IMG/VR virus record: IMGVR_UViG_3300032038_000011
Span: 1 to 64,000 of that record
DNA: 64,000 bases
Strand: one strand, 5' to 3'
Source: a virus
Lineage: Duplodnaviria; Caudoviricetes
Shown: positions 34,277 through 64,000 of the stretch, one piece after another
How positions within the stretch are numbered: position 1 is the stretch's first letter
Layout of the letters: each line of letters opens with the position of its first letter
The notes under the pieces: generated by a model
Told to the model about the DNA's origin: nothing
Database searches by the model: none
Seen by the model: only the letters and a program-made list of their open reading frames with translations
Program-made: the position numbers and the translations under genes

Positions 34277-34474
34277 TCACTCCATAATTTGCCAAAATTG
34301 AGAGGCAATATTTTGAAGAGTATAATATAATTTTTCTTCATTTTTAGTAGATAAGCCTTTTTGATTATGCAACCATTTACTTAATGTAGTTAAATCGACT
34401 TTCATAATTTTAGCAATATAACTAAGTGACATACCATTATCTACAAAAAATTGTAATTTTTCTTTTAAAGTCAT
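34277..34474 (-). CDS. Small HTH protein upstream of the endonuclease
   Basis: GMSLSYIAKIMKVDLTTLSKWL. Confidence 0.6.
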   Translation of the reverse strand: MTLKEKLQFFVDNGMSLSYIAKIMKVDLTTLSKWLHNQKGLSTKNEEKLYYTLQNIASQFWQIME

Positions 34475-34511
34475 AATATACCCTCCTTTCATTTTGAAAA
34501 TGATAATATTA

Positions 34512-35373
34512 TCAAGATTCTTTGGCATTTTCTGCCAAATTTTTTTGATTTATAACTATTCCGTTATAAGATTTATTATACTCTAATTTTTGTTTATTTT
34601 TACAAATTGGACAATAAACATATGAATTTTCATATATTTCATTATCTTTTACATCAACGATTAATGCAGAACAATTTTCACAAATAAACCATAGGCCAGG
34701 ATGTTTTGCTGATAATACTTTCATTAAATAAAACCACTTCCATTATCATCATCTATAAAGAGAATAAAAATAGAAAGAAGAATGATTAGTAAATATGCGC
34801 TAATATGCATCTTCATCACCTAATGTATTTTCATCACAAAAACTATTTTTAGAAGTAAAATACCAATGAATTGGTTCATCATCAAGAACAGCAAAATCAG
34901 TTTTATACGCGCAATAACCAAAATCTCCATCAGTGTTTATGGTTGGATGCTCTTGCTCAAAATATTCACAATTGCGACAACATCGCACATTTATTTGAGC
35001 TGGAACAGTTTTGTTTTCTGTAATTTCTGGCTCAATATCATCAATTATATCTAAAATTTTATTTAAATGAGTATCTTTTAAATATTGTTCTAAAATTTCC
35101 CTACTATAGTATTTCAATGTCGTCTCCCCTAGAAGCATGATCATCATTACAAAAGCTATTTGTATCTACACGAATATAATGAGGAGTATACTTACCTTCT
35201 CCTTCAAAAGAAAGTCTCCTACACCAACCACGTGTGACATCTTGAAAAGGTTGAACGCCATCAATTTCAAAGAACGGACAATCGCGGCAAAACCTTACAT
35301 TGATTGTATATCCTTGGCCTTCAGCAGAAGCAATATCATCATCATCAACAAATGCGTTATAAATATATTCCAT
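34512..35373 (-). CDS. Three small Cys-rich hypothetical ORFs (34512, 34800, 35104)
   Basis: CxxC motifs; 34800 and 35104 share INVR.C..C..F...NSFC. Confidence 0.55.
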
Positions 35374-56953: not shown

Positions 56954-57005
56954 TTAGGGGTTTGTAAATTAGAATGGCCGTTTAGTCTAATTTACGTAGG
57001 TTTAA
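56954..57005. repeat. 52-bp palindromic site 1
   Basis: TTAG-N6-GTAAATTAGA-ATGG-CCGT-TTAG-TCTAATTTAC-N6-TTAA. Confidence 0.85.
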
Positions 57006-57006
57006 C

Positions 57007-57035
57007 TTGACTTCTTGCGTGGTCTGTGCTATACT
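57007..57035 (+). promoter_or_regulatory. sigma-A promoter abutting site 1
   Basis: TTGACT-N17-TATACT. Confidence 0.8.
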
Positions 57036-57065
57036 TATATCATCAAATGAAAGGAGATTTCAGAT

Positions 57066-57281
57066 ATGCCTTATAAGATGATTAAATGCCCGAAGTGTGG
57101 AGTTGAGGGAAGTTTTGAGATTGTCGCGGATTCTGCGCTTGGTTGGAACTATAACTATAATTGTTATAGTAAGATAGTTTTCTGTACTTGTCAGAATTGT
57201 AATACTTCCTTCTCTGCGGAAGAACTTTACGACATTATCGGATATGATGAAGATAGTGTTAAGATTGTGGAGGTAGTATAA
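57066..57281 (+). CDS. Zn-ribbon protein
   Basis: CPKC...CQNC; AAAGGAG RBS. Confidence 0.7.
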   Translation: MPYKMIKCPKCGVEGSFEIVADSALGWNYNYNCYSKIVFCTCQNCNTSFSAEELYDIIGYDEDSVKIVEVV

Positions 57282-57282
57282 T

Positions 57283-57663
57283 ATGCGAAAGAATCATACT
57301 CATCGTGGATTTTATGTTAATCTGAAAAAGAAAAAAGTTACTGGAACTCTTTTGAAGGGTCGGACAGGGAAAAATATGAGTGTCCTTAAAATATATGAAT
57401 ACCGAGATTTTTTGTGGTATCTACATTTTAATGAATTTCAAGAGTATGGTTTGTTACTTCCTATCTATAGACTTCGTAAAAATTTGAAGTATCGAAAACC
57501 TATTATTAAAAGATGGGAAAAAGAATCGCGACACTTAAAGTGTCGTTTTATTTTTGTGTTAATTAAATTGTACGTACACTCTATTTTACCATACTTTAAC
57601 TTGACATATTACATACTATCTGCTATAATTGATTTATCAAATGAAGGGAGCGCAAGCGAATGA
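57283..57663 (+). CDS. Basic hypothetical protein (3' end runs through a terminator and site 2)
   Basis: ORF with GGAGG RBS. Confidence 0.5.
   Translation: MRKNHTHRGFYVNLKKKKVTGTLLKGRTGKNMSVLKIYEYRDFLWYLHFNEFQEYGLLLPIYRLRKNLKYRKPIIKRWEKESRHLKCRFIFVLIKLYVHSILPYFNLTYYILSAIIDLSNEGSASE
57548..57599. repeat. 52-bp palindromic site 2
   Basis: TTAT-N6-GTTAATTAAA-TTGT-ACGT-ACAC-TCTATTTTAC-N6-TTAA, then TTGACA. Confidence 0.75.
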
Positions 57664-58209
57664 TTAGTGGAATTTTAACGGATATTTTGGGATATATTCT
57701 GTTTACAAGTTTTATTTTTTGTTTCTTTGGCGGCTGTGTTTACCTAATTATATATGGTGTTCGGCAATATTTAGAAGAAGAAGATGGGTTCTTTATTTTC
57801 GCAACTGTTATAGGATGTGTTGGCGCTATGATTGTTATAATTATCGTCTTAAAAGCTTTTGGACTATAATTGGAGGATATGTAATATGAAGAAAATTAGT
57901 TATAATGATGCTGCTTATATTTGCCGCTACAAAGAAAAGCATTTTTTTGAGAAGTATTTTTGTAATCATTATATTTGGATGAATAATCCAAATGAAGGAA
58001 TAATAAAAAAAGATATGAAAATTTGGTTTTATATCTTAACATTTATTCCTATCTGTATTCTTCAATTTATTTGTCTCTTGTGGGATGGTGGTATAAAGCA
58101 TTTTGAGATTCCTTCTATTAACATAATGGCTTATAACGTCACCGGACTAACTTCTGATAATGATGATACCACTATGTTTGGTAGGTTTAAGCAAGTATAT
58201 AATAAATAG
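57660..58209 (+). CDS. Two small membrane-associated hypothetical proteins (57660..57869 and ~57886..58209)
   Basis: ORF track, hydrophobic segments; terminator at 58204..58230. Confidence 0.6.
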
Positions 58210-58228
58210 CGGCAAAACCGCTATTTTT

Positions 58229-58280
58229 TTAATTATATGTAAATTAGATGTCACGTGTAATCTAATTCACGCAATTTTAA
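58229..58280. repeat. 52-bp palindromic site 3
   Basis: TTAA-N6-GTAAATTAGA-TGTC-ACGT-GTAA-TCTAATTCAC-N6-TTAA. Confidence 0.9.
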
Positions 58281-58357
58281 CTTGACTATTCTAACTTTAT
58301 ATGTTATACTTATTTCAACAGATGAAGGAAAACATCTCAAACCAGAAAGGCATTAGA

Positions 58358-59008
58358 ATGTTTAAGTATGAGTGGGAAATTCAGGAAGCAAACAAAGAGT
58401 ATCTCGAACAGAGACAAATGTGCTTGGATGCTTATCAATCCATAGCAGAATGGGTTGGAGAAAAAGAAATTCAAACCGAAGTTAAAGGCACTGATGAAAA
58501 TATGTGCCGTTATATAGCCTTTGGTGACGTTGAACCGGAAATAGACGGTTACGAAAAAGGAATACTTTCAATTAATGCTCGTGTAGCTATTAAAAAGTAT
58601 TATACTTTTATCGAAGGTCAAGGTTATATACGGACGAAAGAATCTAATTTCATTGACCGTAGCGATCGCGACAAGTTCGAGAAAAATAATATTGAATATC
58701 CTAAAACTTGCGGTCTTTACATGATAGGGCAGACGTTTGTTAATCCTATCACTAATGAAAAGTTTTATTGGATTAAGGTTGGAGAAGCGCAAAATCTGGC
58801 ACGTCGTAGACATGATTACAATTCTATGACCGCTATGATTTGGGATATTGGATATTATACTAAAGATGATTTGACTGAATCTGAATGTCACGATAAATTG
58901 AAAGATATTGCCCTTCATCGTCATGCGGACGAATGGTTTTCTGTATCGCGCGAAAACTATTTGAAAATTTGCGAACAGGGCTTTGAATGGTTCAAAGAGG
59001 ATGAATAA
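58358..59008 (+). CDS. GIY-YIG-like (T5orf172/MUG113) domain protein
   Basis: GLYMIG...IKVG...NL.RR..Y...E..CH..L...EWF; start at ATG after CAGAAAGG. Confidence 0.6.
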   Translation: MFKYEWEIQEANKEYLEQRQMCLDAYQSIAEWVGEKEIQTEVKGTDENMCRYIAFGDVEPEIDGYEKGILSINARVAIKKYYTFIEGQGYIRTKESNFIDRSDRDKFEKNNIEYPKTCGLYMIGQTFVNPITNEKFYWIKVGEAQNLARRRHDYNSMTAMIWDIGYYTKDDLTESECHDKLKDIALHRHADEWFSVSRENYLKICEQGFEWFKEDE

Positions 59009-59017
59009 TCCTCTTTT

Positions 59018-59069
59018 TTAATTTAGTGTAAATTAGACTATACGTATTGTTTAATTTACATTCGCTTAA
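59018..59069. repeat. 52-bp palindromic site 4 (between two convergent terminators)
   Basis: TTAA-N6-GTAAATTAGA-CTAT-ACGT-ATTG-TTTAATTTAC-N6-TTAA. Confidence 0.9.
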
Positions 59070-59089
59070 AATTAAGGCGCTTTCGCGCC

Positions 59090-59269
59090 TTAATCTTTCA
59101 TTTCCTGAATATCTTCATCCCTTGTGTAAACAAGAACTTCCGTCCATCCCCAAGTTTTATTGCATTTAGGGCAAGTTCCATAACCAATATCATAATATGC
59201 GTGATTATGGTATTCGGTATCTACTACATCCTCAAAAGTAACTGTTTCGCCGCAATTAGGACATTTCAA
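59090..59269 (-). CDS. 59-aa Zn-ribbon protein (not in ORF track)
   Basis: Hand translation MKCPNCGE...CPKC...; AAGGAAG RBS, TTG start. Confidence 0.65.
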   Translation of the reverse strand: MKCPNCGETVTFEDVVDTEYHNHAYYDIGYGTCPKCNKTWGWTEVLVYTRDEDIQEMKD

Positions 59270-59270
59270 A

Positions 59271-59939
59271 TTAATCGACTTCCTTTATATCAGTTTCGTC
59301 ACTATAGATATAATTGACTTCATTCTGATAGGTACGTCCGCAAGTGGGACAGTGCCAAGTGTTGAATTGCGTCATAGTGGATGAACCACCAAAGTCCTGA
59401 TAGGTTTCAATCTCAACAAGCTCAAGTTCAGTATCGCAATGAGGGCAAATGTAATCCATAATTATATATATTCCTTTCTTAAATTTTAGCTATTCTATAA
59501 TCGGGGCAATCTTGTTTATGTAATTTACATAAACGGTTATATGCTTCTTCATAAGAAGGCCAAGCCCATTTATAATTATCATCCGCTGGCGTCCAAAAAC
59601 TTCCACACATATCAACCCAAAGGATTTGAATTTGATACATAAAATTGCTCCCCTTTCGTTTTCTTGAATATATTATAGCATGAGATGGAATGAAAGTCAA
59701 GTTAATTTTCTGATATTTTCTATTTTTTCTTCAATCTGATATGAAACATATAGTTCTTTTTCAGAACGTATTTTCTTAATATATGCTTCTGCCTCGTCTT
59801 TGGTGTCAAAAGTTGCTATCAAAGTGTAAGTATCGCGGAAACCTTGACCGCCATAAACAACCTTATACACATGGTAATACATATCGGCTATAATTCTCAT
59901 TGACTTTCTCCTTTGCTTTTCTTGAATATAGTATATCAT
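59271..59939 (-). CDS. Three small ORFs (59271 Zn-ribbon, 59479, 59697)
   Basis: ORF track; promoters at ~59673..59700 and ~59930..59958. Confidence 0.6.
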
Positions 59940-59959
59940 AGAAATACTTTGAAGTCAAG

Positions 59960-60011
59960 TTAATTATTAATTAATTAAAATGTACGTACCATTTAATTTA
60001 CATTTGCTTAA
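59960..60011. repeat. 52-bp palindromic site 5
   Basis: TTAA-N6-ATTAATTAAA-ATGT-ACGT-ACCA-TTTAATTTAC-N6-TTAA. Confidence 0.8.
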
Positions 60012-60036
60012 AAAGAAAAGGGCTTACGCCCTTTTC

Positions 60037-60438
60037 TTAACAGTGAGGACAATGAAGGCAATCATCACGGCATCCATAACAATAATCATCATCATCATAG
60101 TCATCATCATAGTCATCATCATCGTCGTCCTCGTCGTCCCAATCGTCGTCCTCGTCCTCGTCGTCATCCCAATAATCCTCGTCCTCGTCATAATCGACGG
60201 TCAGAAGGTCAGGATTCAGAGGACAACCATTGAGATTAACCATATAGCCCTCGTCATTTGCCGCGTCAATCGCGGAAATGATGTCGGTCAGAAGGCGGTC
60301 AGAATCAGCCTTGCGGGAATTGCGAATCGCATCATCCACCGCGTCACGCAGGGCAACCAGGGTCTTGATAGGCATATCAGTCAGAACCACGCCGCCGTTG
60401 ATGGAAGTGCCGCACTTGATGTTAGAGTTCATATTCAT
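60037..60438 (-). CDS. Highly acidic protein with Asp-rich tail and terminal Cys cluster
   Basis: ~35-aa D/E/Y/W tract, CYGC...CLHCPHC; GAAAGGA RBS. Confidence 0.75.
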   Translation of the reverse strand: MNMNSNIKCGTSINGGVVLTDMPIKTLVALRDAVDDAIRNSRKADSDRLLTDIISAIDAANDEGYMVNLNGCPLNPDLLTVDYDEDEDYWDDDEDEDDDWDDEDDDDDDYDDDYDDDDYCYGCRDDCLHCPHC

Positions 60439-60534
60439 ATTGAATCCTTTCTCACTTGGGTTTGTTAAGTGTTTTCCTTCACTTGATGTTATTATTATAT
60501 CAGATGGAGTGGAGTTTGTCAAGTTAAGAGTTTG

Positions 60535-60693
60535 TTACTGTCTGCTTACCCACGCGGTAAGCATATCTACCGCGCAGCCAAAACCAACTGGAATTGCCCA
60601 TACCGCCCAATGATGGGGAACTTTACCCATCGTCCAAAGAATGAACACAATCGCACCAGTTACCTTAAACAAATTGATGTTTCTTGCTTGCAT
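60535..60693 (-). CDS. 52-aa membrane peptide
   Basis: MQARN... two hydrophobic segments, own promoter and leader. Confidence 0.55.
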   Translation of the reverse strand: MQARNINLFKVTGAIVFILWTMGKVPHHWAVWAIPVGFGCAVDMLTAWVSRQ

Positions 60694-60770
60694 CTTAAAT
60701 TTCCTTTGGTTTGAAGTGTTGTCCTTCACTTGATGTATATATTATAGCATGGGTTTGGCTATTTGTCAAA

Positions 60771-60822
60771 TTAAGAGTTGGTAAATTAAAATTGACGTAT
60801 GCTTTAATTAAATAGCACTTAA
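60771..60822. repeat. 52-bp palindromic site 6
   Basis: TTAA-N6-GTAAATTAAA-ATTG-ACGT-ATGC-TTTAATTAAA-N6-TTAA. Confidence 0.8.
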
Positions 60823-60826
60823 CGTG

Positions 60827-61255
60827 CTACTTAATAAAGGTATCAATATCTGTTACTATTCGCGCGGAAACATAATGTTTCTTACAAGTTAAGGTTTCAT
60901 AGAAAGCCATATCTTTTTCATAGTTCTTATCAAAATCTAATATGGCATTCATGTTAGCTTGTATGGGATTAATATTGTATCTAAACTCCAAACGATTACG
61001 CCATGCTTTTGCGTTCTGTTCGGGAATGAGAAGTTCAAATTCAATATTCTGCTCCATAAGTCGGTTAATAACTGCTTGATGCGCGGAAATAAAGACATTG
61101 TATCCCGCAACACTAAGGTTATGAGCTAAAGCAACATAAAGATATTCCCATTTGTCTTTCTTGACAAAGTTAGAAGAATCTAAATCTATGGTAGTGTCAG
61201 GATTGTTACGACAATAGGTAGACTTTCCACAACCTTGATAGCCACAATAAATCAT
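60827..61255 (-). CDS. Small P-loop NTPase/kinase-like protein
   Basis: GYQGCGKST, IDLDSS.F. Confidence 0.7.
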   Translation of the reverse strand: MIYCGYQGCGKSTYCRNNPDTTIDLDSSNFVKKDKWEYLYVALAHNLSVAGYNVFISAHQAVINRLMEQNIEFELLIPEQNAKAWRNRLEFRYNINPIQANMNAILDFDKNYEKDMAFYETLTCKKHYVSARIVTDIDTFIK

Positions 61256-61309
61256 ACAATATCGCCCCTTTCATTATCTATTATACACATTTAGGGGCAA
61301 ATTGTCAAG

Positions 61310-61361
61310 TTAAACTTATGTAAATTAGAATCTACGTTAGGTGTAATTTACATAAACTTAA
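61310..61361. repeat. 52-bp palindromic site 7
   Basis: TTAA-N6-GTAAATTAGA-ATCT-ACGT-TAGG-TGTAATTTAC-N6-TTAA. Confidence 0.9.
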
Positions 61362-61373
61362 AAAGAAGGAGGA

Positions 61374-61733
61374 TTACTCCTCCTCCTTCTCCTTGGCTTC
61401 CTTTTCGGCCTTGGCCTTGGCCTTTTCGCGCTTGGCCTTGTCCTTAGCGGCCTTTTCGGCACGCTCGGCGGCCTTCGCGGCCTTCTTAGCCTGCTTGTCC
61501 TCATAGTCCGCAATCTCAGCGGCCATGAGTTCGGCGGCGGTCATGTCCTCGCGTTCCTCGGCCACGATGACGCCGATGCGGGCGTAGCGTTCCACGCCGT
61601 TGGAATCGGTCACAAGGCAACCGTACTGGCGGTCGTTAATCTTGTGAATACCTTCGACCTCGGAAATGTGCAGGGTGTTGAAGATAACGGTGCGGATGTT
61701 GGAATCGACAAGAGCCTTAGAAATCTTCGCCAT
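61374..61733 (-). CDS. Hypothetical protein with Lys/Ala/Glu-rich tail, GC-rich codons
   Basis: ORF, CAGAAAGG RBS, terminator overlapping the stop. Confidence 0.75.
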   Translation of the reverse strand: MAKISKALVDSNIRTVIFNTLHISEVEGIHKINDRQYGCLVTDSNGVERYARIGVIVAEEREDMTAAELMAAEIADYEDKQAKKAAKAAERAEKAAKDKAKREKAKAKAEKEAKEKEEE

Positions 61734-61824
61734 AGTAGGAAAATCCTTTCTGGTTTTTTAGTGTTTTCCTTCACTTGATGTATTCATTATAGCACGTTGT
61801 GTGCCTAATGTCAAGTTAAAAGTT

Positions 61825-61904
61825 TGTTACAAGAGCGTGGGTCTTACTGCGAATTTCGCGTAGCGCTCCGCGGTTATCGGCTTACTGCCCTCGCCCTTGG
61901 AACA
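61825..61904 (-). ncRNA. Candidate ~80-nt sRNA with its own promoter
   Basis: TTGACT-N17-TATAAT at 61910..61938; terminal stem; two GCAGTAAG copies; no ORF. Confidence 0.55.
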
Positions 61905-61939
61905 ATTATATTATAGCAGAAAATCCCACATAAGTCAAG

Positions 61940-61991
61940 TTAAAACATAGTAAATTACATTTGACGTTCTATCTAATTTACACTTGCTTAA
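61940..61991. repeat. 52-bp palindromic site 8
   Basis: TTAA-N6-GTAAATTACA-TTTG-ACGT-TCTA-TCTAATTTAC-N6-TTAA. Confidence 0.9.
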
Positions 61992-62018
61992 CAAGAAAAG
62001 ACCCTTGCGGGTCTTAAC

Positions 62019-63038
62019 TTAATATTTACAATCCAGTCCGGCATATTCGGCAAGCCGCCTCATGCGATTGACTAATCCTACGCAATAGGTAGACAAGGCT
62101 TTTTCCTGCTCTGCTGCTTCATCCTGTTTTGCGTCAACATAGCAAGCCATAGCATAATAAACGGTTTCACATTCGCGCTTGTCTGCCTTTTTCCTTCTCA
62201 TACAAAATTCATCAGTAGCGCCCAAGTCACGAAAAGGGAAAAACTTAATGCCTGGCGTTATGGCGTGGCGCTGTGCTATCTTGTGAAGTATGTAAGATTC
62301 AATGATAGCATCGTCAAGCGCGGTATGGCTTTCTTCAAAGTCGTATACATCGCAAAGGTATCTAAAAGTCGATTCGGCGGAAGTTTTGAAAAATGTTCCC
62401 GAATTAGTCAAAAGGCCATTTTCCAAACACTTGTTTTTATAGTTCACATTGTTTAACAAATGCGTTGTGGCAAGTCCCCACAAATCAAACATGGAATAAG
62501 TGTTGCCACGAAAACGAAAAATTTCCGCTTCAAAGTCGGGGTTACGCTGGTTTTTTTCGCCTTCCGCAATTCGCGCCGCACTTGCGCGTTGTATCTGTTC
62601 CCATTCATTATAGTTAGGACTATACAATTCCCGAATGTAAAGTTCAGTAAAAGGAATAGCCTTTTTGAAGTCGAACATTGCGTTAAATGCGCCGATTCCA
62701 TCCACCGAGGACATATCAGAAATGAAAATTTCCATAACTTCATCCCACGGTTTTATGCTGGTTTCGCCCTCTTTAAGCATATTAAGGTAAATCGGGCGTT
62801 TTTCCGCATAATACGCGGTATTGAAAATGGCAGGAACGGCGAAAGTTTCCGCAATCAGAAATTGCTTGCGCTCATAGATATTTCCTGCGCGGTCACAGAT
62901 AGTCCAGCCAATGTCATAAATCAAAGGTTTGGCAATGGCTATGCGCTTTTTGCGCTCAGGGTCGCCATTTGTGATTTCATCCGCAAAGGGCAAAGTTGCC
63001 GTTTCCGTATCGACTACCATAAATTTCAATTTCTTCAT
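62019..63038 (-). CDS. DEDDh 3'-5' exonuclease family protein
   Basis: VVDTET, AFNAMFD, HTALDDA..E. Confidence 0.8.
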   Translation of the reverse strand: MKKLKFMVVDTETATLPFADEITNGDPERKKRIAIAKPLIYDIGWTICDRAGNIYERKQFLIAETFAVPAIFNTAYYAEKRPIYLNMLKEGETSIKPWDEVMEIFISDMSSVDGIGAFNAMFDFKKAIPFTELYIRELYSPNYNEWEQIQRASAARIAEGEKNQRNPDFEAEIFRFRGNTYSMFDLWGLATTHLLNNVNYKNKCLENGLLTNSGTFFKTSAESTFRYLCDVYDFEESHTALDDAIIESYILHKIAQRHAITPGIKFFPFRDLGATDEFCMRRKKADKRECETVYYAMACYVDAKQDEAAEQEKALSTYCVGLVNRMRRLAEYAGLDCKY

Positions 63039-63115
63039 AAAAAGCCCTTTCTGGTTTGTCGTTGTTTTCCTTCAACTGTAAGTATATTATAGCACACCCA
63101 CCGTAGAATTGCAAG

Positions 63116-63167
63116 TTAAACTTTTGTAAATTAGACCTAACGTTCTATCTAATTTACATTAGCTTAA
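63116..63167. repeat. 52-bp palindromic site 9
   Basis: TTAA-N6-GTAAATTAGA-CCTA-ACGT-TCTA-TCTAATTTAC-N6-TTAA. Confidence 0.9.
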
Positions 63168-63189
63168 AAAAGAAATTAACCCTTGCGGG

Positions 63190-64000
63190 TTAATTCTTTT
63201 CGCGGATTGAATTAAGATGCTGCTGGTATTCCTTTTTGAAATTCTTTGCCGCTTCGTCCTTCGGCGTTGAATTACCAAAGGCAAGATACTGATAAATAAG
63301 ACCGTTGTTAGTAACTTCACAAGTTATATAAGACTTATCGGGGTCGTTTTTAAGGCGAACGGTTACAACGTGGGTATGGCCTTTATAAACCTTTTCCATA
63401 TACAGACGTTCAACGCAATTCCTTTGCGCTTCGCCCTCTTTGTGGAAATCCTCTTTTGTCAACAAGGGCTTGACAACAAAAGTATCATTTTCATAATAAA
63501 GCCATTCTTTATCATTATACTTTGCCAGTTCTTCGTTATAATGCGCATCCCTATATTCTTTTTCAAGATATTTAAGAACGGCATATTTAGTCAAAAAGTT
63601 CTTTTCGACTTCTACTTTACCAAACATTTTCATAGAAGTCTTGTAATACCAAGCTAACATATCCCTAATATAGCTTGCCTGATTATAACCTTCATACATT
63701 GCTTCCATGTGTTCACTAATAACACGATTCAAAGCAGTTTTAATATAATCAACAGGGAAATCAGCATTAAGCAAGGAAGAAAAAACTTCTTTCGCCCAAT
63801 CAGGCAAAGTATTAACGTACTGTTCATACTGTATCATGATAAGATACTTGTTAATTCTATAAGCATCATAATAATCATTGCAGTTTTCCTTAACATAATC
63901 TACAACCTTTTTAGTAAGGTTAAGTTTATTGTTAAGAGTTTCGGGTTCACTCGGAAACAGGCCCAAGCTCAAAAGCTGCTCAAAACGCGCGCCCTTTTCT
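63190..64000 (-). CDS. PcfJ-like domain protein (5' end probably outside the window)
   Basis: EG..Q.NCV...Y...V..G...VV..R...P.KSY.T.EV...Q...N. Confidence 0.65.
   Translation of the reverse strand, partial: EKGARFEQLLSLGLFPSEPETLNNKLNLTKKVVDYVKENCNDYYDAYRINKYLIMIQYEQYVNTLPDWAKEVFSSLLNADFPVDYIKTALNRVISEHMEAMYEGYNQASYIRDMLAWYYKTSMKMFGKVEVEKNFLTKYAVLKYLEKEYRDAHYNEELAKYNDKEWLYYENDTFVVKPLLTKEDFHKEGEAQRNCVERLYMEKVYKGHTHVVTVRLKNDPDKSYITCEVTNNGLIYQYLAFGNSTPKDEAAKNFKKEYQQHLNSIREKN

Follow-up and report, generated by a model that had tools for sequence, protein, structure and literature searches.

What is the function of a long palindrome that recurs between small, self-contained gene cassettes of a phage genome? 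The question is raised by the virus record IMGVR_UViG_3300032038_000011 (Caudoviricetes), a linear IMG/VR viral contig of 136,935 bp with a CheckV completeness of about 80%, called G000 here. Its first 64 kb, positions 1 to 64,000, are the stretch analysed and are referred to as the window. A sequence-only reading of the window had described nine copies of a 52-bp palindromic site between positions 56,954 and 63,167 and proposed an integron-like system of cassette capture and shuffling, with binding sites for a phage regulator or a DNA-organising protein as the alternative. We consider it probable, with modest confidence, that the array is a class-specific operator set for a symmetric DNA-binding protein, placed inside cassettes that resemble the promoter-early stem-loop (PeSL) cassettes of T4-type phages and that also recombine by homology.

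All nine sites were found again where they had been described, with identical internal spacing and zero indels. Seven of them match the 32-nt core GTAAATTAGA-N4-ACGT-N4-TCTAATTTAC with up to three mismatches, where 0.00 matches were expected from 100 shuffles, and the degenerate copies at 59960 and 60771 were recovered by a position weight matrix (PWM) with scores of 43.2 and 36.1. Outside the array the PWM score did not exceed 15, and the best outside hit of a matrix built from the nine sites reached only -2.6. The earlier statement that there are no copies upstream of the array in the window was thus right, as the matrix scans detected nothing comparable there, and the array sites are far beyond chance. 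The sites up to 63167 are real, but the array does not end there: the matrix scan of the whole contig, a check that the sequence-only reading had asked for, found 34 sites, all between 56,954 and 75,261.

Five related IMG/VR contigs were examined in full or in large part and each has an array, with 33 and 39 sites in two complete genomes of 184 kb and 181 kb and 30, 43 and 9 sites in three fragments. Together these are 188 sites over six genomes, and in every genome they fill a single region of 17-21 kb; no site was found elsewhere in the two complete 181-184 kb genomes. With a looser pattern we detected 448 sites in 20 viral contigs from at least a dozen metagenomes, and the copies per genome in relatives number 30-43. 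The only tandem pair seen, two full sites 68 bp apart (7230 and 7298), lies at the array end of the relative G004. The core motif was not found in 185,579 bacterial and archaeal genomes, except for one 2.2-kb contig of a metagenome-assembled genome, which has several sites and is itself array-like.

The sites are part of a repeated regulatory module of about 110 bp, which in the direction of transcription consists of an intrinsic terminator, the site, a promoter and a leader. The hairpin of the terminator, with its U-tract, ends 0-8 nt from the edge of the site in 153 of 155 hairpin-flanked sides, in line with the description of terminators touching the sites, and every convincing terminator of the array abuts a site. 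On the other side, the -35 box was said to start one base from the site. This is the case for the window promoters that adjoin sites, where a single base is followed by TTGACA-17-TATAAT, often TG-extended. Among 131 one-sided sites the -35 box was offset by +1 in 111 and by +12/13 in 18, and in additional contigs offsets of +1 (202 cases), +12 to +14 (36) and +22 to +25 (10) were found, in steps of about one helical turn. Assuming a transcription start 7 nt past the -10 box, the dyad of the palindrome is centred at -62.5 and less often at -73.5 or -84.5. The position and the helical phase of the promoter relative to the site are therefore fixed, as is generally expected of an operator. Divergent promoter pairs share one site at equal offsets, for example 1/1 at 72722 and 12/12 at 65872. 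Fourteen sites have promoters on both sides and no terminator, and 12 of the 188 lie at convergent junctions and are promoterless. The latter arrangement had already been pointed out for site 4 at 59018, which has terminators on both sides and no promoter, and the view of the cassettes as self-contained units of promoter, genes and terminator is likewise supported.

The pairing of promoters with sites holds for most cassette heads but not for every promoter, as three strong promoters within the window cassettes have no palindrome (-35 boxes at 59700, 60522 and 61814). The site-free promoters of the array directly follow a gene without a terminator. Another 24 strong sigma-A-like promoters without a site are located outside the array in the genome and differ in flavour (TTGACT, spacer containing AAAATT), so the palindrome marks a single promoter class. 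The promoters with TTGACT, the AAAATT spacer and TATAAT front minus-strand gene blocks, never together with a palindrome, and may represent a later temporal class. A conserved leader containing CATCAAATGAAGGAG was found between the -10 box and the start codon at about 57040-57060 and 57635-57655 and in most other cassettes.

The features of the array from 56,954 to 63,196 and the positions of the second promoter class are as follows; sites and the last two positions are given without strand.

56954..57005: site 1, left array end, centre CCGT, PWM score 51.6; drives a plus-strand cassette
57007..57035, plus strand: promoter of cassette 1, TTGACT-17-TATACT; -35 box begins 1 nt past site 1
57528..57546, plus strand: terminator hairpin of cassette 1, ending 1 nt before site 2
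57548..57599: site 2, PWM score 44.4
57601..57629, plus strand: promoter of cassette 2, TTGACA-17-TATAAT, TG-extended
58204..58226, plus strand: terminator of cassette 2
58229..58280: site 3, PWM score 46.3
58282..58310, plus strand: promoter of cassette 3
58994..59016, plus strand: terminator of cassette 3
59018..59069: site 4, convergent junction with terminators on both sides, PWM score 56.3, among the best-scoring copies
59071..59094, minus strand: terminator of the first minus-strand cassette, c4
59672..59700, minus strand: internal promoter without palindrome, TTAAC-TTGACT-17-TATAAT
59930..59958, minus strand: promoter abutting site 5
59960..60011: site 5, degenerate copy, PWM score 43.2
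60494..60522, minus strand: internal promoter without palindrome; the upstream remnant is only TTAA-N6-GTTAC
60741..60769, minus strand: promoter abutting site 6
60771..60822: site 6, most degenerate copy of the window, PWM score 36.1
61280..61308, minus strand: promoter abutting site 7
61310..61361: site 7, PWM score 56.0
61360..61394, minus strand: terminator of cassette c7, touching site 7
61786..61814, minus strand: internal promoter without palindrome
61910..61938, minus strand: promoter abutting site 8
61940..61991: site 8, PWM score 45.8
61998..62015, minus strand: terminator of cassette c8, whose cargo is a 339-amino-acid protein with a D-x-E exonuclease-like N-terminus
63086..63114, minus strand: promoter abutting site 9, TTGCAA-17-TATAAT
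63116..63167: site 9, perfect core match; the array continues beyond
63173..63196, minus strand: terminator of cassette c9, with a PcfJ-like gene at 63190-64236
1368, 4610, 7312, 7757, 29617, 31264, 36687, 48405, 49754, 53527, 54852 and 56884, minus strand, window: second promoter class
121617 and 130219, genome coordinates beyond the window: second promoter class

The site itself had been delimited by outer TTAA sequences, and these are present. The promoter-side TTAA, however, also fronts palindrome-free promoters (TTAAC-TTGACA), which assigns it to the promoter and leaves a core site of about 34-36 bp. The core is built of two 10-bp arms, with their centres 22 bp apart, around an invariant CG. 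An ACGT centre, as first described, is not universal, since site 1 has CCGT. Invariant or nearly invariant bases (G11, T12, A14, T17, C26, G27 and their mirrors) alternate with freely varying N4/N6 spacers. A protein-free element would be, for instance, an AT-rich enhancer similar to an UP element, bent DNA, or a hairpin or cruciform formed by the DNA or by read-through RNA. It would suit the AT-rich sequence immediately before the -35 box, and the arms offer 10 bp of potential pairing. Yet positions 13/40 and 16/37, which vary within the arms, show no compensatory covariation, nor are the N4 spacers complementary, which argues against a hairpin, a cruciform or an attC-like folded substrate. 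The site is also located downstream of the terminator and hence mostly untranscribed, and the CG and the G/C at positions 11 and 42 are conserved in an AT-rich background. Together with the genome-specific centre described below, this makes a protein-free element extremely improbable. Judged from these sequence patterns, arms that are read independently by a symmetric protein are favoured over arms that pair.

Positions 25 and 28 on either side of the CG covary strongly overall. This covariation is a between-genome effect, because the type of centre is specific to the genome. ACGT is nearly exclusive in some genomes (32 of 33, 24 of 25 and 10 of 10 sites), and CCGG is found in others (29 of 29, 30 of 30 and 30 of 39). 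A few genomes are mixed and carry half-switched CCGT or ACGG sites. On the trees of three cargo genes the centre type is scattered, and the supported branches require three changes or more. If gene conversion alone were at work, the spacers should have become uniform too, which is not seen; most simply, all sites of one genome are matched to the specificity of a trans-acting reader that the genome itself encodes. The alternative that the sequence-only reading had named, a site for a regulator or DNA-organising protein, fits this genome-specific centre and the fixed promoter geometry much better than the recombination system it had preferred. A restriction or methylation role of the central ACGT/CCGG was considered and dropped, as the rest of the genome shows no depletion of ACGT (observed/expected 0.97).

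The reader could also be a host transcription factor or nucleoid protein that the phage borrows to boost or time its early promoters. These promoters must fire before any phage protein exists, and the dyad position is the class I activator geometry generally known from CRP-type activation. Class I activators bind at related distances, CRP being centred at -61.5, -72.5 and -82.5, and the phi29 protein p4 binds upstream of promoters. The array resembles these systems in its dyad near -62.5, with alternatives one or two helical turns upstream, and in half-sites separated by two turns, like those of p4. The sequences are unrelated, and the core promoters of the array are consensus already, so repression by holding the polymerase is as likely as activation. 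The consensus promoters also speak against a borrowed booster. So does the centre, which changes between ACGT and CCGG from one phage to a close relative, and so does the near absence of the core motif from cellular genomes, which counts against a borrowed host regulon. We therefore regard a host factor as improbable.

A phage-encoded regulator has a precedent in SPbeta, where the master repressor MrpR (also YopR) uses palindromic SPBRE sequences in some ten early promoter regions as its operators; MrpR has the fold of a tyrosine recombinase but lacks recombinase activity (PMC10516654). An att-like site can thus be purely regulatory. In both systems a palindrome recurs in the early promoter regions of a large phage. 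SPBRE, with the palindromes TGTAATGCATTACA and GTAAACCATATGGTTTAC, is a 15-bp motif with about 10 copies in the temperate SPbeta, whereas the sites described here are 34-52 bp long, are present in 30-43 copies, are tied to terminators and stand in constant phase to the promoter, in genomes where neither an integrase nor an MrpR homologue was detected. Many near-identical repressor sites in early intergenic regions are also a feature of phiC31, with its conserved inverted repeats, and of mycobacteriophage L5, with its stoperators. These sites are 13-17 bp long and serve the immunity repressors of temperate phages; those of L5 are asymmetric and act as roadblocks within operons.

From these observations we infer that a protein binds the sites, that the phage encodes it and in which direction it acts. 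The 52-bp element, with its core of about 34-36 bp, would be the recognition site of a symmetric sequence-specific protein, most likely encoded by the phage. It would form the middle piece of a module of terminator, site, near-consensus host sigma-A-type promoter and leader that heads nearly every cassette of the early region. As the dyad keeps a constant helical phase to the -35 box downstream of it, the bound protein would be placed to touch RNA polymerase and to control the whole promoter class together. Its likely effect would be a shut-off or damping after the early burst, because the core promoters are already consensus.

Several observations weigh against an operator set. In the whole array, 12 of the 32 strong promoters have no site. 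The +12 offset class shares an A-tract insert and may go back to a few independent events, which weakens the phasing argument. Promoterless convergent sites score like promoter-adjacent ones (PWM 46.1 versus about 45), and sites between two promoters score lower (39.0). The promoterless site beside cassette c27 is kept across genomes in which the cargo DNA is only about 70% identical and the spacers are largely randomised. Well-kept promoterless sites together with weaker promoter/promoter sites imply that the site has a value beyond the neighbouring promoter; it may act as a terminator-linked insulator, as a member of a cooperative set or as the joint itself.

The search for the reader belongs on the same side of the balance. 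Among the 25 listed of the 27 Pfam families matched for 131 open reading frames (ORFs), no helix-turn-helix, ribbon-helix-helix or AbrB family was found at E <= 0.001. HTH_3, HU/TF1 and ParB domains were sought in three genomes without a convincing or universal candidate, and the ORFs with weak HTH_3 matches are not common to all array-bearing genomes. No MrpR/YopR homologue was detected, with tblastn searches using YopR and YopP giving nothing better than E = 0.1; a relative at the fold level may still be present. PHROGs and Pfam searches yielded no candidate for the cognate binding protein, and the comparison of the G001 and G005 proteomes for outliers was uninformative, since they are too divergent (median identity 64%). 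Two individual candidates did not convince as readers: a small Cro-like helix-turn-helix protein of G000 (34277-34528) is absent from the complete G001, and another helix-turn-helix protein, at 134049-134276 in G001 and 142055-142249 in G005, is encoded in the part of the genome that G000 lacks. About 45 kb that are present in both complete relatives (equivalent to about 100-146 kb of G001) are missing from G000, which agrees with its estimated completeness of 80%, and regulators encoded there are outside the scope of the G000 searches.

The value of promoterless sites would be accounted for by an architectural, insulator or roadblock site, where the bound protein mainly works with the terminator, for instance against read-through between strongly transcribed neighbours, or bridges adjacent sites to fold or silence the whole early region, with no direct regulation of the promoter next to it. 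This fits the hairpins that lie 0-8 nt from a site in nearly all flanked sides, and the restriction of convincing array terminators to sites, with the terminator-less internal promoters having no site. It also fits the full conservation of sites between two terminators and the lower scores of those between two promoters. Without an interaction with the polymerase, however, it is hard to see why the -35 box should follow at exactly 1 nt and why the other offsets should step by roughly 11 bp, and 14 sites have promoters on both sides and no terminator. On balance we consider such a site unlikely, though worth keeping as a rival.

The operator set also has to be reconciled with the mobility of the cassettes, for which the sequence-only reading had been made. 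Cassettes are indeed gained, lost, moved and flipped as units among relatives; it is the site-specific capture mechanism that is not supported. Every strand switch falls at a site, and there is exactly one site per junction, including promoter/promoter and terminator/terminator junctions. The cassette order is mostly collinear in all relatives, with cassette-sized gains and losses, relocations (c12, c16 and c32) and inversions as exceptions. A dedicated site-specific recombination at the central CG, of integron, shufflon or serine-invertase type, would be in keeping with a palindrome of about 50 bp with an invariant central dinucleotide, with one site at each junction, divergent and convergent ones included, and with single cassettes that are flipped between adjacent sites, present or absent, or relocated among relatives. 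The collinearity over about 70% nucleotide divergence does not suit such a system. The earlier remark that no recombinase lies in the window can be extended to four array-bearing genomes: no match to Resolvase (PF00239) or Phage_integrase (PF00589) was found at E <= 1 in G000, G001, G005 and G002, two of which are 100% complete, and there is no recombinase or transposase family among the Pfam families listed for the 131 ORFs.

The breakpoints, mapped as the points where similarity switches parent, are informative as well. Among chimeric sites checked by hand, several independent ones switch in the arm next to the terminator; in others the switch falls in the arm next to the promoter, at the TTAA/-35 block or beyond the site. 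When all 448 sites were screened without bias, 67 junction pairs from 32 flank groups were obtained, with 46 group-by-breakpoint classes. Only 2 of the 46 classes have their first divergent base at positions 28-32, as a crossover at the CG (positions 26/27) predicts. With the other 44 classes elsewhere and no Resolvase match, the proposed serine-recombinase-like exchange at the symmetric centre is not supported. The comparison with integrons fails too, as there is no IntI and no attC-like covariation, and each cassette has its own promoter and terminator in mixed orientations. Integron cassettes, by contrast, are promoterless, share one orientation and are transcribed from a common Pc. What the array has in common with attC sites, serine-recombinase att sites and the Hin/Gin sites are the imperfect palindromes that flank cassettes and, for the serine type, the central dinucleotide; it differs by the lack of a detected recombinase gene, by crossovers that are not central and by a sequence rather than a fold that is conserved. 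Site-specific recombination is thus very improbable in our view.

The distribution of breakpoints favours cassette exchange by homologous recombination within the module over exchange by a site-specific enzyme. The phage encodes a Sak4-type AAA_24 protein and a RecJ-like nuclease, which fits such homology-driven shuffling. As the sites are palindromic, any two of them can be aligned as direct and as inverted repeats, which predicts one site per junction and explains site 4 without a dedicated enzyme. As a by-product of its presumed regulatory role, the 30-40 dispersed modules would offer portable homology to the general recombination functions of the phage, by which whole cassettes could be deleted, inserted or moved and, thanks to the palindromic site, also inverted.

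PeSL cassettes of T4-type phages are modules of a terminator and an early promoter with crossovers at varying points of the module, for which homologous recombination has been inferred (PMC2839356, PMC4122927). Like them, the array module is a composite of a terminator and a strong sigma-70-type early promoter that is repeated between small ORFs in plastic regions, and in both the indels and replacements of relatives end inside the module at variable points. PeSL cassettes are hosted by T4-like myoviruses, whereas the array phage is related to SPbeta-like phages and probably infects Firmicutes. In addition, terminator and promoter are separated in the array module by a long conserved palindrome with its invariant CG, but in PeSL cassettes only by an AT-rich stretch. 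The array module is an analogue of PeSL and not a member of it.

Regulation and exchange could also be joined in one protein. The palindrome would then be read by a phage protein that escapes recognition by present sequence methods, perhaps one derived from a recombinase like MrpR, which switches the whole early regulon and also targets cassette exchange and inversion to the sites. Such a dual role would explain the kept promoterless sites and the exactly one site per junction; we consider it distinctly unlikely.

The cargo of the cassettes consists mostly of small genes of early type without an assigned function. In the window it includes several CxxC zinc-ribbon miniproteins and P-loop kinase-like, D-x-E exonuclease-like and PcfJ-like proteins, and cassette 3, which is absent from G004, encodes a 216-amino-acid protein with a weak T5orf172 match. 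This cargo fits an early host-takeover region, the early timing being our inference. A 133-amino-acid protein (60037-60438, minus strand) has a net charge of -36, a long Asp/Glu/Tyr/Trp tail and a Cys-rich end, and its composition resembles that of DNA-mimic proteins. The ORF at 57283-57663 (plus strand) has no in-frame stop before the terminator and reads through the terminator, site 2 and the next promoter to the start of the next gene. A paralogue family of cassettes c7, c12 and c14 (61374-61733, minus strand, in the window; 66020-66322, plus strand, and 66840-67295, minus strand, in G000) is conserved in all arrays. Its structure model, of good quality (predicted local distance difference test score, pLDDT, 88.7), combines one helix with a three-stranded sheet and ends in a long C-terminal helix rich in Lys, Ala and Glu. 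The paralogues may bind DNA. No PDB sequence match and no fold match at E <= 0.001 were found for the family, and a likeness to SPO1 Acb4 and to the N-terminal domain of the Tn916 integrase is weak and was not taken as evidence.

The gene content of G000 includes a GH25 / PG_binding / SH3 lysin, a DNA polymerase III alpha-type replicase, DnaB, the RecJ-like nuclease, the Sak4-type AAA_24 protein and GIY-YIG endonucleases, and the ribosome-binding sites are strong (GGAGG). No DNA similarity of G000 to cultured phages was found. By DNA polymerase its nearest cultured relatives are SPbeta-like Bacillus phages with 36% identity, and a Firmicutes host is likely. Just past the array, heading the terminase and structural block, a phage sigma-factor-like gene (77553-78896, plus strand) encodes 447 amino acids with a zinc-ribbon-like C-terminus and a match to phrog_5767 (E = 1e-20). 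Also beyond the window and downstream of tail-tube-like genes, a single ORF (92000-109987, plus strand) encodes 5,995 amino acids, and G005 has an open frame of 5,615 amino acids; as a tape measure protein, should that be its function, the product would be of exceptional length. Outside the arrays, G000, G001 and G005 have far fewer GATC and CATG sequences than expected (observed/expected 0.30-0.59), which suggests restriction avoidance.

If the array is an operator set, one protein and one 36-bp site would control 30-40 early genes, probably for host takeover and anti-defence, in widespread large uncultivated phages. The site would then be a handle for finding the regulator and for defining the early gene set of phages without a cultured host, and the module would be a ready-made insulated expression cassette of terminator, operator, consensus promoter and leader for Gram-positive synthetic biology. 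Should regulation and exchange instead be joined in one protein, the array would be a phage 'cassette platform', serving as an integron does but through another mechanism. The switch from ACGT to CCGG across whole arrays represents a natural experiment in the co-evolution of a regulator with its many sites. The array also extends the PeSL idea of repeated regulatory modules as joints for swapping accessory genes outside the T4 group, and its palindromic joint adds inversion to deletion.

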